Program-made: the position numbers and the translations under genes
Shown here: piece after piece, positions 51,222 to 54,343 of the stretch
Numbering within the stretch: position 1 is the stretch's first letter
Layout: every line of letters starts with the position of its first letter
Assembly: GCA_963662405.2 (NCBI GenBank)
Contig: CAXXKT010000003.1
Span: 64,001-128,000, forward strand
DNA: 64,000 bases
Source of the DNA: Syntrophales bacterium
GTDB taxonomy: Bacteria > Desulfobacterota > Syntrophia > Syntrophales > UBA2210
Direction of reading: 5' to 3'
The notes under the pieces: model-generated
The model's input: only the letters and a program-made list of their open reading frames with translations
Told to the model about the DNA's origin: nothing
Databases searched by the model: none

Positions 51222-51560
51222 TCACGCGAAGACATCGATCAGCGATTTTTTCATCTCCCCGTCGGTCTCGATGACCGTGATATTGGCGCTGTGGGCGTGT
51301 TGTGTCGTAATGAGATTGACCAGTTCCACCGGGAGATTGACATTCGACGATTCGGTCCCGTCGGGCTGTGTCGTGCCGGGGGTGTCCTCCTCGGTGATCG
51401 TCACCGAGACGCCGGGGACTTCACCGGTCTGAAAGAGGGCCCGGCTTGCCTTGAACTCATCCGTGTTGATATTCGCGATGTTGTTGGCTGTCACGTCCGC
51501 TTTTTTTTCAAGGGTCTTGAGGGCGGATACGGCAATCTGCGCGGCGGGAGCCTCTAACAT
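51222..51560 (-). CDS. Small flagellar basal-body rod-like protein (FlgC-like)
   Basis: TANNIANINT..FK and SNVNLPVELVNLI..Q...ANI.VI motifs. Confidence 0.8.
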   Translation of the reverse strand: MLEAPAAQIAVSALKTLEKKADVTANNIANINTDEFKASRALFQTGEVPGVSVTITEEDTPGTTQPDGTESSNVNLPVELVNLITTQHAHSANITVIETDGEMKKSLIDVFA

Positions 51561-51622
51561 CTTCCTTCTCCTATAAAAAGTCAATTCATGGAGAGCCTGT
51601 CAAACAGGCCCATGGTTAAAAT

Positions 51623-52735
51623 TTAAACGGCCAAAGCATAACACCTCGCAACCTTACTCATCTCTACATATTTCGGGTCTGGCAGCATTTTCGATGGATC
51701 AAACGGCTCCCCCTTCTTCAAGATGGCATATACAATAGTGCTCATCTTTCGCGCCGTCGCTATTACGCTCTTCCCGGTTCCCTTGTTCTCTTTCATGGCT
51801 TTGTATTTGTACATAAGCCAATATCCATCGGTTTTATTCCGAAGCCGTAGCATCCCCATTACCATTTGCACAAAAGCCGTCCTCAGTTCCACGGGGCCTC
51901 GCTTGGTAATATGACCATGGCGAATGGTCTTGTTGGAGTTTTGAACCCATGGTACCAAACCGGCATGAGCAGCATACTGCTTGGCGCTCTCATATCGGTT
52001 GATGTCATCGGTATAAGCCCGAATCGTCGCTGCTGTTATTATTCCAACGCCAGGAATCGTTTGCAACAGAGCAACATCCTCGTCTTCAGAAACAAGATCA
52101 GATAATACGCGCTCAAGTCCTTTGACCTCGGATGCAATTTGGTCTATTGTACCAAGAAGCGGTTTTACCGCTCGGGCAGCGTTTCCGTAACTCCTATGGT
52201 CCGCGAGACCGTCAAGGATTCGCTGCCTTTCTTTTTTGCTCTGCAGCTGTCCCCGCCGACTCTCTATCCCATATCCAAGCAATAAACCGTGTATCTGGTT
52301 TTTCAAGGATACCAAAGCTTTCACCAGAACAGAACGTGACTTGAGAAGCCTTCGAATGTCCTCGCTTTCCTGCGAACAAAGAATGGACTCGGGAAGCATA
52401 TCTTTCTCAAGAAACTCAGCCAATGTGCGGGAATCATGCTTGTCAGTCTTTTTTACTGACTCATTTACAACCTTGAATTTCAAGGTGTTCACTATCTTGA
52501 CCTCAATCCCCGCCTTCAAAAACCGGTTGCGAAAGTGTCGGGTGTTCCCTGTTGATTCCACCGCTGCCGTGACCTCGTAACCGCCCTCATTCCAGTTGGA
52601 CACCTTCATGATAAATGCCCGGTAACCTCGATCAGTCGTCGGGTAGATGCCCGACTCCTGAACACTCCGATCTTCACTCAAACAACAAACGGTAAACTGC
52701 GTCTTGTGAAGGTCAACCCCGATACTCATCTTCAT
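51623..52735 (-). CDS. IS110-family transposase/recombinase (DEDD RuvC-like plus Tnp20 domain)
   Basis: IGVDLHK, VESTG, KTDKHD, LQTIPGVG and GLVP...S...ITKRG..LR. Confidence 0.95.
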   Translation of the reverse strand: MKMSIGVDLHKTQFTVCCLSEDRSVQESGIYPTTDRGYRAFIMKVSNWNEGGYEVTAAVESTGNTRHFRNRFLKAGIEVKIVNTLKFKVVNESVKKTDKHDSRTLAEFLEKDMLPESILCSQESEDIRRLLKSRSVLVKALVSLKNQIHGLLLGYGIESRRGQLQSKKERQRILDGLADHRSYGNAARAVKPLLGTIDQIASEVKGLERVLSDLVSEDEDVALLQTIPGVGIITAATIRAYTDDINRYESAKQYAAHAGLVPWVQNSNKTIRHGHITKRGPVELRTAFVQMVMGMLRLRNKTDGYWLMYKYKAMKENKGTGKSVIATARKMSTIVYAILKKGEPFDPSKMLPDPKYVEMSKVARCYALAV

Positions 52736-52764
52736 AGAACGCCTCCTCACATCTTGGACAGCGC

Positions 52765-52935
52765 CTGTCAGGTGAATTGGTCCCAATCTCCTATTCGATC
52801 TCGAAGATCATTGAATGTTGCGGCTACAGCTCTTCATTCTCCTTTGCGGTCTCGAAGACCAGTAAACATGTCGAACAGTAGCCTTGCTGCCCAAAACTAT
52901 AAAGTTTCAAACAGTGTATCCCAATTCACAGCTCA
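52765..52935 (-). ncRNA. Predicted IS110 bridge RNA
   Basis: Enclosing stem GTGAATTGG/CCAATTCAC. Two internal loops are capped by the near-identical hairpins GGTC-TTCGA-GACC and GATC-TTCGA-GATC, flanked by segments matching the reconstructed target and donor. Confidence 0.75.
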
Positions 52936-52958
52936 TGAAGACTTTTTATCATTCCTCC

Positions 52959-52995
52959 TTAAATAGGGACAGCGCCCAATTATCGACTTGACCCC
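52959..52995. repeat. Single copy of the TAAATAGGGACAGCGCCCA repeat abutting the IS110 end, followed by GACTTGACCCC
   Basis: Matches the arms at 55858 and 56927. Confidence 0.8.
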
Positions 52996-53005
52996 TTATG
53001 GGCAT

Positions 53006-54280
53006 TCACGCGAAGGTATTCAGCAGGGAACCGAGCAGTGATTGCTGCAGCAGGTCTGCCGAAGCGGTATAAATGGAATCGGCGAACTCCGTGTTGATGG
53101 CTTCGGCTTCCGTGGCGTAATTGAGCGGTGAATTGGTCGCTATCTGCGAGGTGTAGTTGCTTACCTGAACGGCGAGCCCGTCGAACCCGGCGAACAGCTC
53201 TTCAACCGCTGACGGGTCCTCACTGATCGCCTCGGCCAGCAGCTCTTCGTCGACCACCAGTGTCCCGTCTTCATCCACCGTGATCCCGATCGATGCAAGC
53301 TCGTCCTCATGATCCTCGATAAAGGAGGTCACCGTGGCGAGGACCTCGTTCGCGATGTAATCGCTGTTTTCCTCCAGGTTACCGATGAATGAATTCAGTC
53401 CCGAAACGAGACCGGTGACGGCGTCCCGGAACTCTTCCTCATCGGGGGCAACCGTCAGGACCGCTTCGCCCGTCCCCTCCAGGGTGGCCGTGATCATTCC
53501 CTCGTCGAGATAGACCGTATTGGAACTCGATGTCTTATCCACGCCGTCGACGCTGTACGTGGCGTCCCGGGCGGCGGTGGATACGGCGGCTGCGCCCGTC
53601 GCTGTGACGGCGTTTCCCGATACATCAGCGATCGAAAAGGCACTCGCCGCGCCGGTCTCGTCGGCAGTGACGGTCAGATTTACCGTCCCCTCTTCGCTCC
53701 CGTCGGTGACCGCGGCGCTCACCCCGATATCCGCGTCGTTGATGGCGGTGGCGATCTTCTGGAGGACCTCTTCGTTGGTGTCCCCCTCCTCGACCGTCAC
53801 GCTCAGATCGTGTTCTTCCCCGCCGACCGTCACCGCAAAGGTGTTCGTTCCCGTATCGACGGTGCCGGCGGCATCCTCGTCCAGCTCCAGCCCGGTGTTC
53901 TCCTGGGCCGCGGCCACCTGGGTCACGGAAATGCTGTACGTGGCCTCGGTCGCCCCCGAATCGGCGGAGAAGGCGTCCGCGGCCTCGGCCGTCACCACGT
54001 CGCTATCCGACGAAGAGGCCGTCCGGTCATGGAAAACGGAGGTATAGTCGTCGCGGGTCAGTTTCTGCGCCTTCGCGGCGAGGGATGACACATTGCCGTA
54101 CAGCTCGCTGAGGGCCTCCCGGGACTCTTTGCTGAATGCCTGTTCATCGAACTGATCCTGCAGGTTTCCGAGGGCCGAGGTGAAGACACCCATCACCAGA
54201 TTGCTGGCGCTGCTCACCCCCAGAGGAGAGAGCAGACTGGTCATCGTCATGTAATTATTGTAGGAACCGGTTATCTGCAT
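53006..54280 (-). CDS. FliD-like (flagellar cap) protein, highly acidic
   Basis: TASSSDSDVVTA, YSISVTQVAAAQ, ARDATYSVDG...SSSNTV and LASIGITVDEDGTLVVDEELL motifs; lacks the canonical FliD termini. Confidence 0.75.
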   Translation of the reverse strand: MQITGSYNNYMTMTSLLSPLGVSSASNLVMGVFTSALGNLQDQFDEQAFSKESREALSELYGNVSSLAAKAQKLTRDDYTSVFHDRTASSSDSDVVTAEAADAFSADSGATEATYSISVTQVAAAQENTGLELDEDAAGTVDTGTNTFAVTVGGEEHDLSVTVEEGDTNEEVLQKIATAINDADIGVSAAVTDGSEEGTVNLTVTADETGAASAFSIADVSGNAVTATGAAAVSTAARDATYSVDGVDKTSSSNTVYLDEGMITATLEGTGEAVLTVAPDEEEFRDAVTGLVSGLNSFIGNLEENSDYIANEVLATVTSFIEDHEDELASIGITVDEDGTLVVDEELLAEAISEDPSAVEELFAGFDGLAVQVSNYTSQIATNSPLNYATEAEAINTEFADSIYTASADLLQQSLLGSLLNTFA

Positions 54281-54343
54281 GGCTGCATCCCCTTCAGGCA
54301 ATAAAAAATCCGCCTCCCCAAGACAGAAAGACGGACATACGTG

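Follow-up and report, generated by a model that had tools for sequence, protein, structure and literature searches.

Targeting of the Shine-Dalgarno (SD) sequence and start codon by IS900-type elements dates from the 1990s. The published target motif of IS900, CATGNNNNNNTCTCCTT, reads on the other strand as an SD, a spacer and an ATG (PMC8141618), and insertion between the SD and the start codon is cited for both IS900 and IS901 (PMC2942039). The IS900 transposase lies antisense to the host gene, and an open reading frame (ORF) on the complementary strand, hed, is said to use host signals. Given this precedent, SD/ATG targeting in the IS110 family is an old observation. The bridge RNA or seekRNA mechanism of the family has also been published (PMC11208160, PMC11208158, PMC11187229). 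A literature search found no paper linking a bridge or seek RNA to the targeting of ribosome-binding sites (RBS) or to the IS900 target; the supplementary target tables of PMC11208160, which lay outside the search, may contain such elements. Here we describe an element in a 64,000-nucleotide stretch of a Syntrophales bacterium genome (contig CAXXKT010000003.1, positions 64,001 to 128,000; hereafter the window). It lies on the minus strand at positions 51568..52959, including an AGGAG at both ends, and is very probably an active IS110-family element whose predicted two-loop bridge RNA, in the upstream non-coding end, would read an SD + ATG target and rebuild the SD.

Like IS900 and IS901 of Mycobacterium avium, the element has a translation-initiation target, and on the opposite strand this target, CAT-N5-CT-CCTTT, has the same form as theirs. 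Unlike the situation in IS900, the recombinase is codirectional with the host gene and the SD is rebuilt, a comparison made by target and description. A 10-bp subterminal inverted repeat, readable RNA guides and a spread across phyla are further differences. The targeted SD belongs to the downstream host gene, which encodes a FlgC-like flagellar rod protein (51222..51560, minus strand; a 112-aa ORF with Flg_bb_rod and Flg_bbr_C domains). AGGAG is found on the minus strand at 52955-52959 and 51568-51572, as a first-pass annotation made from the DNA letters had reported. That annotation also held that excision restores the RBS of the flgC-like gene, and removal of the element in silico indeed leaves ..ctattta AGGAG aaggaag ATG before the FlgC-like ORF, with AGGAG upstream of the ATG. 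An empty site is available from two genomes of the same genus, in which the orthologous fliD-flgC junction is uninterrupted and consists of GAGGAG, 8 nt and ATG.

The genome that contains the window (3.8 Mb; hereafter the own genome) holds nine copies of the element, eight of them identical and one with a single mismatch, and all nine have AGGAG at both ends; no solo ends were found in this genome. The near-identity of the copies points to recent activity and would fit the copy-out transposition for which two preprints argue. On the left, AGGAG is preceded by A in 9/9 copies and by AA in 8/9, and on the right an ATG stands 5-9 nt past AGGAG in 8/9. Seven of the nine copies precede ORFs of 71-239 codons, five of which carry Pfam domains (FlgC-like rod protein, SIMPL, DUF6680, nitroreductase and outer-membrane (OMP) barrel), and every copy points the same way as its downstream gene. 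The conserved target over the nine copies is (A)A-AGGAG, and the two bases past AGGAG vary. Accordingly, the 8/8 match to 'AAGGAGAA' that the first-pass annotation described holds for the copy in the window, and across the nine copies only its (A)A-AGGAG part is conserved. As a background, the own genome contains 917 AAAGGAG sites, of which 28.4% have an ATG at 4-10 nt and 22.5% an ORF of at least 60 codons. Occupied sites differ from these both in the presence of an ATG (8/9, P=2.8e-4) and in the presence of an ORF (7/9, P=6.8e-4). The bias toward gene starts therefore exceeds what the motif alone would give.

Relatives were collected by a scan of one genome per species, which yielded 77 loci with 91% to 31% protein identity in 39 assemblies (counted by accession prefix). 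Long contigs place them in Desulfobacterales, Spirochaetia and Lentisphaeria; other phylum labels rest on short metagenome contigs. All complete left junctions read ..GGAG followed by the left end, and all right ends read ..TTGACTTTTTAT-AGGAG, or ..TTTATCAT-AGGAG in the Lentisphaeria subclade. At the right junctions of the other genomes, an ATG occurs at 4-10 nt in 49/56, most commonly after a spacer of 6 nt, and an ORF that has at least 60 codons or reaches the end of the locus is present in 45/56. The arrangement AGGAG, 4-10 nt, ATG is seen at 57/65 right junctions. Among the exceptions at the 56 junctions are copies that are decayed or truncated at the 5' end, L048 with its tandem right end, and L033, where a purine run precedes a later ATG. 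Two Lentisphaeria loci, L071 and L074, are 5'-truncated copies, and the right 5-mer of L074 is GGGAG; in L048 the right end is duplicated in tandem.

A contrast between occupied and unoccupied sites is also seen in a Spirochaete chromosome (G041), where TWTAGGAG occurs 230 times, 82 of them with an ATG at 4-9 nt. With element-internal copies removed, the ATG class makes up 79/200 pre-insertion sites and 12/12 occupied sites of that motif (P=8.4e-6). A 6-nt spacer is found at 12/15 occupied and 22/67 unoccupied sites (P=0.001). These site statistics, like the anatomy of the element, are direct observations. This chromosome holds 15 element copies, and the 230 occurrences of TWTAGGAG compare with 609 for the same pattern read backwards, so the motif is under-represented there.

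At the sequence level, the regeneration of the SD proposed in the first-pass annotation agrees both with the arrangement at the 57/65 right junctions and with solo right-end remnants that stand before ATGs. Two such remnants of 39 nt (93-95% identity) were found in a genome of the same genus (L097 and L101 in G003), each followed by 6 nt and an ATG, and another of 97 nt (77% identity) was found in a genome of the same family (L096 in G016), followed by 4 nt and an ATG. Because these remnants directly precede ATGs, some host genes may now use an element-derived SD.

The predicted bridge RNA region lies at 52772..52929 (minus strand), where pairing of 52921-52929 with 52772-52780 makes a long-range stem around a 5' hairpin, loop 1 and loop 2. 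The twin TTCGA-capped hairpins that had been noticed at first pass are present on the minus strand and show compensatory changes. In the main clade, of which 24 distinct left ends were aligned, the loop 1 distal hairpin, GGTC-TTCGA-GACC (52848..52860), has 96.7% of cells paired and compensatory changes at 2/5 pairs; the loop 2 distal hairpin, GATC-TTCGA-GATC (52797..52809), has 100% of cells paired, with columns 163/174 being GC in 14 sequences and AU in 10. Together with the outer stem of loop 1, these form three core helices with 97-100% of cells paired and compensatory changes, and the covariation score of the whole structure was reached by 0/500 shuffles. The outermost stem and the 5' hairpin co-vary too, blurred by shifts in the alignment. 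An Rfam scan of 51400-53100 at E<=1 returned no family, only a sub-threshold chance match to isrD. The 3' arm of the 5' hairpin (GGGCAG, 52884-52891) can pair either with its own upstream arm or with CTGTCC (52760-52766), which lies past loop 2 and before the recombinase SD. The second pairing (RNAalifold columns 75-80 / 215-220) shows 6-8 double changes, and the 5' hairpin shows double changes at 8/11 pairs; these alternative pairings may constitute a structural switch.

The 3' strand of loop 1, AAAGGAG (52839..52845, minus strand), is the same as the SD sense strand and would thus pair with the antisense strand of the target. When the guides were compared with the left flanks at 63 junctions, representing 30 bridge RNA types, matches were found in 59/63 at position -1, 44/63 at -2 and 24/63 at -3, and in 60-63/63 at the positions of the 5-mer. 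Over the three upstream positions, the observed average of 1.92/3 matches compares with 1.22 (sd 0.125) when guide labels were shuffled among types, and 0/10000 shuffles were as high. Guide position -1 switches from A to T or G along with the target. This covariation of the guide, like that of the RNA stems, is seen directly in the alignments. Overall, the SD targeting put forward in the first-pass annotation has been borne out in 9/9 own copies and in the whole clade: the collected insertion sites of other copies and homologues are enriched at AGGAG upstream of ATG, and a covariation analysis of the non-coding end against its targets finds that both the stems and the loop 1 3' guide co-vary.

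The 5' strand of loop 1, CATGTTTACT (52861..52870, minus strand), complements the right flank on its sense strand, over the start codon and the bases preceding it, and ends in the CT core. We examined this strand with an ATG-anchored comparison, in which its CAT is paired to ATG and the next five guide bases are set against the five bases before ATG. Among 22 types, the fit was 2.40/5, compared with 1.97 (sd 0.16) for shuffled labels (45/10000 as high). In the own genome, occupied sites scored 2.50 and 457 unoccupied SD-type sites 1.47 (P=0.003), and in the Spirochaete chromosome occupied sites scored 3.07 and unoccupied SD-type sites 1.84 (P=1.6e-4). The proposal that a second guide reads the start codon therefore survives in these three tests when anchored on ATG, but not in its original contiguous form, AAGGAG-AAACATG: the register that places AAACATG straight after AGGAG found no support (P=0.13, own genome). 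The register that places the guide CT on the core was likewise set aside, being the best in the own genome (P=3.5e-4 over all sites, 0.008 over SD-type sites) and giving P=0.14 in the Spirochaete chromosome, where the best fixed register is a shift of +1.

Loop 2 appears to read the element itself. Its flanks were matched at first pass to the two sides of the joined ends, and the matches hold: the 5' strand CATTC (52813..52817, minus strand) is the complement of GAATG (52950-52954), with which the left end starts, and the 3' strand ATAGGAG (52788..52794, minus strand) is the same as the right end plus core and thereby matches the right end TATAGGAG, which is conserved in relatives. The variable base of CAT-N-C pairs with left-end G-N-ATG in 4/6 variant elements (L034, L059 and L031, with L046 by wobble). 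ATAGGAG is kept in 32/34 bridge RNA types, and the frameshifted L077 and L081 carry a 1-nt insertion there. No loop 2 5' guide could be identified by eye in the Lentisphaeria subclade.

Variant junctions among the relatives place the exchange point between positions 2 and 4 of AGGAG. Positions 1-2 of the relatives' left 5-mer track the target (TGGAG, CGGAG, AAGAG, TAGAG), and L012 and L078 have AGGGG at the right junction and AGGAG at the left, with AGGGG also in the loop 1 guide of L078. In the left AGGAG (52955..52959, minus strand), AGG (52957-52959) is derived from the target and AG (52955-52956) is the core, which is CT on the other strand; in the right AGGAG (51568..51572, minus strand), AGG (51570-51572) belongs to the element and AG (51568-51569) is the core or a copy of the target. 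Most likely, the unit that moves spans the 1387 bp of 51570-52956, with AG+GAATG at one end and TATAGG at the other, and its right-end AGG together with the AG core would rebuild the SD of the downstream gene. Just inside the ends lie the subterminal inverted repeats, ATAAAAAGTC on the left (52940..52949, minus strand) and GACTTTTTAT on the right (51573..51582, minus strand), 10 nt long and 100% complementary, with 7 bp (AGGAATG) outside the left repeat and 3 bp (AGG) outside the right one, where the end is conserved in relatives. The non-coding ends comprise 219 nt before the recombinase ORF and 50 nt after it; a terminator scan found none in the right end. A circle-junction promoter (TTGACT-17 nt-TAAAAA) is possible, with TTGACT at 51579-51584 as its -35 box. 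In the inserted state, an ATG stands 1 nt past the upstream SD copy and opens an 8-codon mini-ORF, ATGATAAAAAGT..TGA (52926-52952, minus strand). This ATG is kept in all relatives, yet both the inverted repeat and a TG-N-TAAAAA box similar to an extended -10 overlap with it.

Several observations weigh against the reading of the element as a bridge RNA-guided insertion that recognizes both SD and start codon. Two of the nine own copies (L004 and L009) have no recognizable gene start. The signal of the 5' strand of loop 1 is modest, and in both the own genome and the Spirochaete chromosome it is confounded by occupied flanks that are more A/T-rich; given the U-rich guide, composition contributes to this signal. 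Across types, no fixed register survives multiple testing (the best, RF+1, had 19/5000 shuffles as high), and the best fixed register differs between these two genomes. Since the ATG-anchored fit holds while no fixed register does, the SD-ATG spacer is taken to be flexible (5-9 nt). In loop 2, the 5' strand reaches the core only with an offset of 1 nt, and two of the six variants (L058 and L062) show no covariation. AGGAG is near-invariant in both loops and in all targets, so that covariation cannot test pairing there and the five bases could be read by protein; of the only three elements that vary in AGGAG, L059 and L078 fit recognition by RNA and L084 is contrary. A consensus promoter scan of the junction-forming ends found none, only a 9/12 match inside the left end, and a search of public sequencing runs turned up none of RNA for this DNA. 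Finally, related elements are non-independent samples, and several of the phylum labels come from short contigs.

Some of these points would also be expected if the bridge RNA read only a 7-nt SD-like motif and the link to gene starts reflected survivorship, with gene-breaking insertions lost and SD insertions near-neutral since the SD is rebuilt. The SD half is the sole strongly co-varying guide, the other strand gives weak results in fixed registers, two of the nine own copies lie away from gene starts, and the A/T-richness of occupied flanks is that of intergenic DNA in general. However, the own copies are identical or one base apart, which leaves little time for selection, and in the Spirochaete chromosome 0 of ~121 motif sites without an ATG are occupied, compared with 12/79 with one. 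Moreover, the 5' strand fits occupied SD-type sites better than unoccupied ones, the 6-nt spacer is favored at the occupied sites, and the type-specific 5'-strand signal survives label shuffling (45/10000). We therefore consider survivorship an unlikely explanation of the association with start codons.

The near-invariance of AGGAG in both loops, both ends and all targets raises a separate issue, namely that the recombinase protein might recognize AGGAG as an extended core and the RNA add just 2-3 upstream bases. Covariation cannot show pairing at these positions, and the IS621 core is partly protein-read (PMC11208158). Against this, the variants follow the RNA: L059 combines guide GAGAG with target TAGAG, and L078 combines guide AGGGG with right junction AGGGG. 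In addition, both IS621 guides pair across the core. A core read by protein in this way seems improbable to us, with only a small chance of being correct. That a cut-and-paste transposase produced the AGGAG pair as a simple 5-bp target-site duplication, with the folds incidental, is hardly conceivable and is refuted by the comparative data, since the identical 5-mers flanking this copy are one and the same 5-mer in all copies and in relatives from other phyla, where a duplication would vary by site, the two 5-mers are unlike each other in L012, L036, L059 and L078, the protein is an IS110-family DEDD recombinase, and stems and guides co-vary.

The family assignment made at first pass is confirmed by the recombinase gene (51623..52735, minus strand; 370 aa), which has its own SD, GAGGAGG, at 52742-52748, and whose product scores above the cut-off with PF01548, PF02371 and NF033542. 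PF01548 (the N-terminal RuvC-like DEDD domain) covers residues 5-155 (profile 1-153/155, E=8e-19, 68.4 bits against a cut-off of 29), PF02371 (the C-terminal transposase domain) covers residues 222-302 (E=3e-20), and NF033542, 'IS110 family RNA-guided transposase', gives a full-length match over residues 5-344 (228.9 bits against a cut-off of 140). Two further family features are present: the same target and orientation recur at 9 own and more than 50 foreign sites with no site-variable duplication, and the predicted non-coding RNA has loops for target and donor, each with complementarity to both strands. Alignment to the solved IS621 and ISCro4 proteins is confined to the C-terminal domain (~1e-18). 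There, the ISCro4 Ser within ..YESGS.. has its counterpart in a Ser within ..VQNSNK.., which would presumably be the catalytic Ser.

Within the family, the element combines characters of two groups. As in IS621, a representative of the strict IS110 group, the recombinase has the same two domains and the guide RNA lies in the left end, upstream of the recombinase. It contains two hairpin-closed internal loops, of which the first is for the target and the second for the donor, and both strands of each loop are guides that overlap at a CT core. Unlike in IS621, the protein is distant, with only its C-terminal domain alignable, and what is targeted is an SD and an ATG separated by a flexible spacer rather than a fixed 14-nt repetitive extragenic palindromic (REP) site. 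The strand matches also come in the opposite order relative to the direction of the element, and the order is IS621-like only if the site is read on the opposite strand; in that format, CATGTTTA + CT forms the 5' strand and the complement of CT + CCTTT the 3' strand. With this reversal, the cargo is inverted relative to the recombination site, and the element is therefore codirectional with the host gene. Strict IS110 elements have subterminal repeats of only 2-3 bp, whereas the repeat here is a perfect 10 bp (9 bp in the Lentisphaeria subclade).

In these latter respects the element resembles the IS1111 group (ISEc11, ISPa11 and ISKpn4, which use a seekRNA). IS1111 elements have 7 bp on the left and 3 bp on the right outside the repeat, a reversed strand-match order and an RNA downstream of the gene (PMC11187229). 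Our element has the same 7/3-bp arrangement, with a repeat inside the 7-17 bp range of the group, and the 7/3 rule puts the boundary between AGG and AG, in agreement with the exchange point derived from variant junctions. Its RNA likewise carries the top-strand complement 5' of the bottom-strand match. Unlike in the IS1111 group, the guide RNA is upstream and not downstream of the recombinase gene, where only 50 nt remain past the stop codon. Judged by these features, the element thus has IS1111-type ends and guide order together with an upstream RNA, and so mixes traits of both groups.

A box in the recombinase ORF at codons ~172-181 (52197..52218, minus strand) is the reverse complement of the loop 1 hairpin and 3' guide (52840-52861) over 22 nt, with 82% agreement, and is present in a subclade of the relatives. 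Its five variable bases match the guide at 41/60 positions, compared with 33.9 (sd 2.7) for shuffled labels (169/20000 as high), and in some relatives the third position of a Leu codon in the box (CTT, CTC, CTG) tracks guide position -1 (A, G, U). In the energies of the loop 1-box duplex, own pairs were no better than cross pairs (2598/20000). The box could pair with the bridge RNA in antisense, imitate it for protein binding or serve as a pseudo-target inside the element. A more far-reaching interpretation, which we offer tentatively and regard as possible rather than likely, is that of a lineage in at least three phyla with a two-part SD/start-codon target, whose flexible 5-9 nt spacer would be impossible for a rigid IS621-type loop; it would ride operons in the sense direction and provide a replacement SD, and its co-varying ORF box would pair with or mimic the bridge RNA and so affect recombinase levels.

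Additional forms of the element, and further features of its surroundings, were seen. L095 (G033:C115), at 404 bp, consists of the left end with both RNA loops and four codons, then fused to the tail of the recombinase gene and the right end. It is flanked by ..tatgaa AGGAG on the left and by 7 nt followed by ATG on the right, and so adds to the sequence evidence for persistence of the rebuilt SD. An internally deleted mini-element of this kind would require a recombinase in trans. In the Spirochaete chromosome, 5/15 insertions (L018, L019, L024, L025 and L028) are located at the end of a ~100-bp repeat, ..GCATCCATGC.GGAA..TTTTTATAGGAG; at L018 the repeat begins with a copy of the element's left inverted repeat. 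It looks like a miniature derivative with an end that mimics the donor right end and draws new insertions. In the window, the upstream host gene (53006..54301, minus strand) is FliD-like, with FliD_N and FliD_C domains, and has the same direction as the element.

These data suggest how the element may move. Transcription of the element would probably come from the host operon, as read-through, or begin at a promoter formed at the circle junction. Once loaded onto the recombinase, the bridge RNA would hold the joined ends of the element in loop 2 and an SD-ATG region in loop 1. The 3' strand of loop 1, AAAGGAG, would pair with the antisense strand of the SD, and its 5' strand (CAT plus a U-rich stretch with a CU end) with the start codon and preceding bases on the sense strand, an SD-to-ATG spacer of 5-9 nt being tolerated. 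Loop 2 would read the joined ends likewise, ATAGGAG corresponding to the right end and CATTC to the left end. Strand exchange is predicted to take place inside AGGAG, at the AG core (CT on the other strand), and the element would enter codirectionally with the gene, between the target AAAGG and a rebuilt TATAGG-AG-spacer-ATG. The right end, ..TATAGG, and the core would then provide an SD at the original distance from ATG. We infer from the DNA that the RNA is produced and bound, that the exchange chemistry proceeds in this way, that the host operon is read through and that the downstream gene continues to be expressed; under this proposal the insertion site would be a 'safe harbour'.

Among the short motifs conserved in bacterial genomes, the SD is the most widespread. 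For an RNA-guided element directed at this sequence, nearly every host would offer thousands of sites where insertion is close to neutral, and this may be why the clade occurs in several phyla. Since its relatives in several phyla target RBS likewise, the element extends a targeting habit known from the mycobacterial IS900, and a bridge RNA is offered here as an explanation for the SD/ATG targeting of IS900-type elements. The opposite orientations of IS900 and this element relative to the host gene would mean that one target geometry can carry cargo in either direction. Finally, a natural guide that is short and degenerate and works with a flexible spacer would bear on the off-target rules for bridge recombinases.

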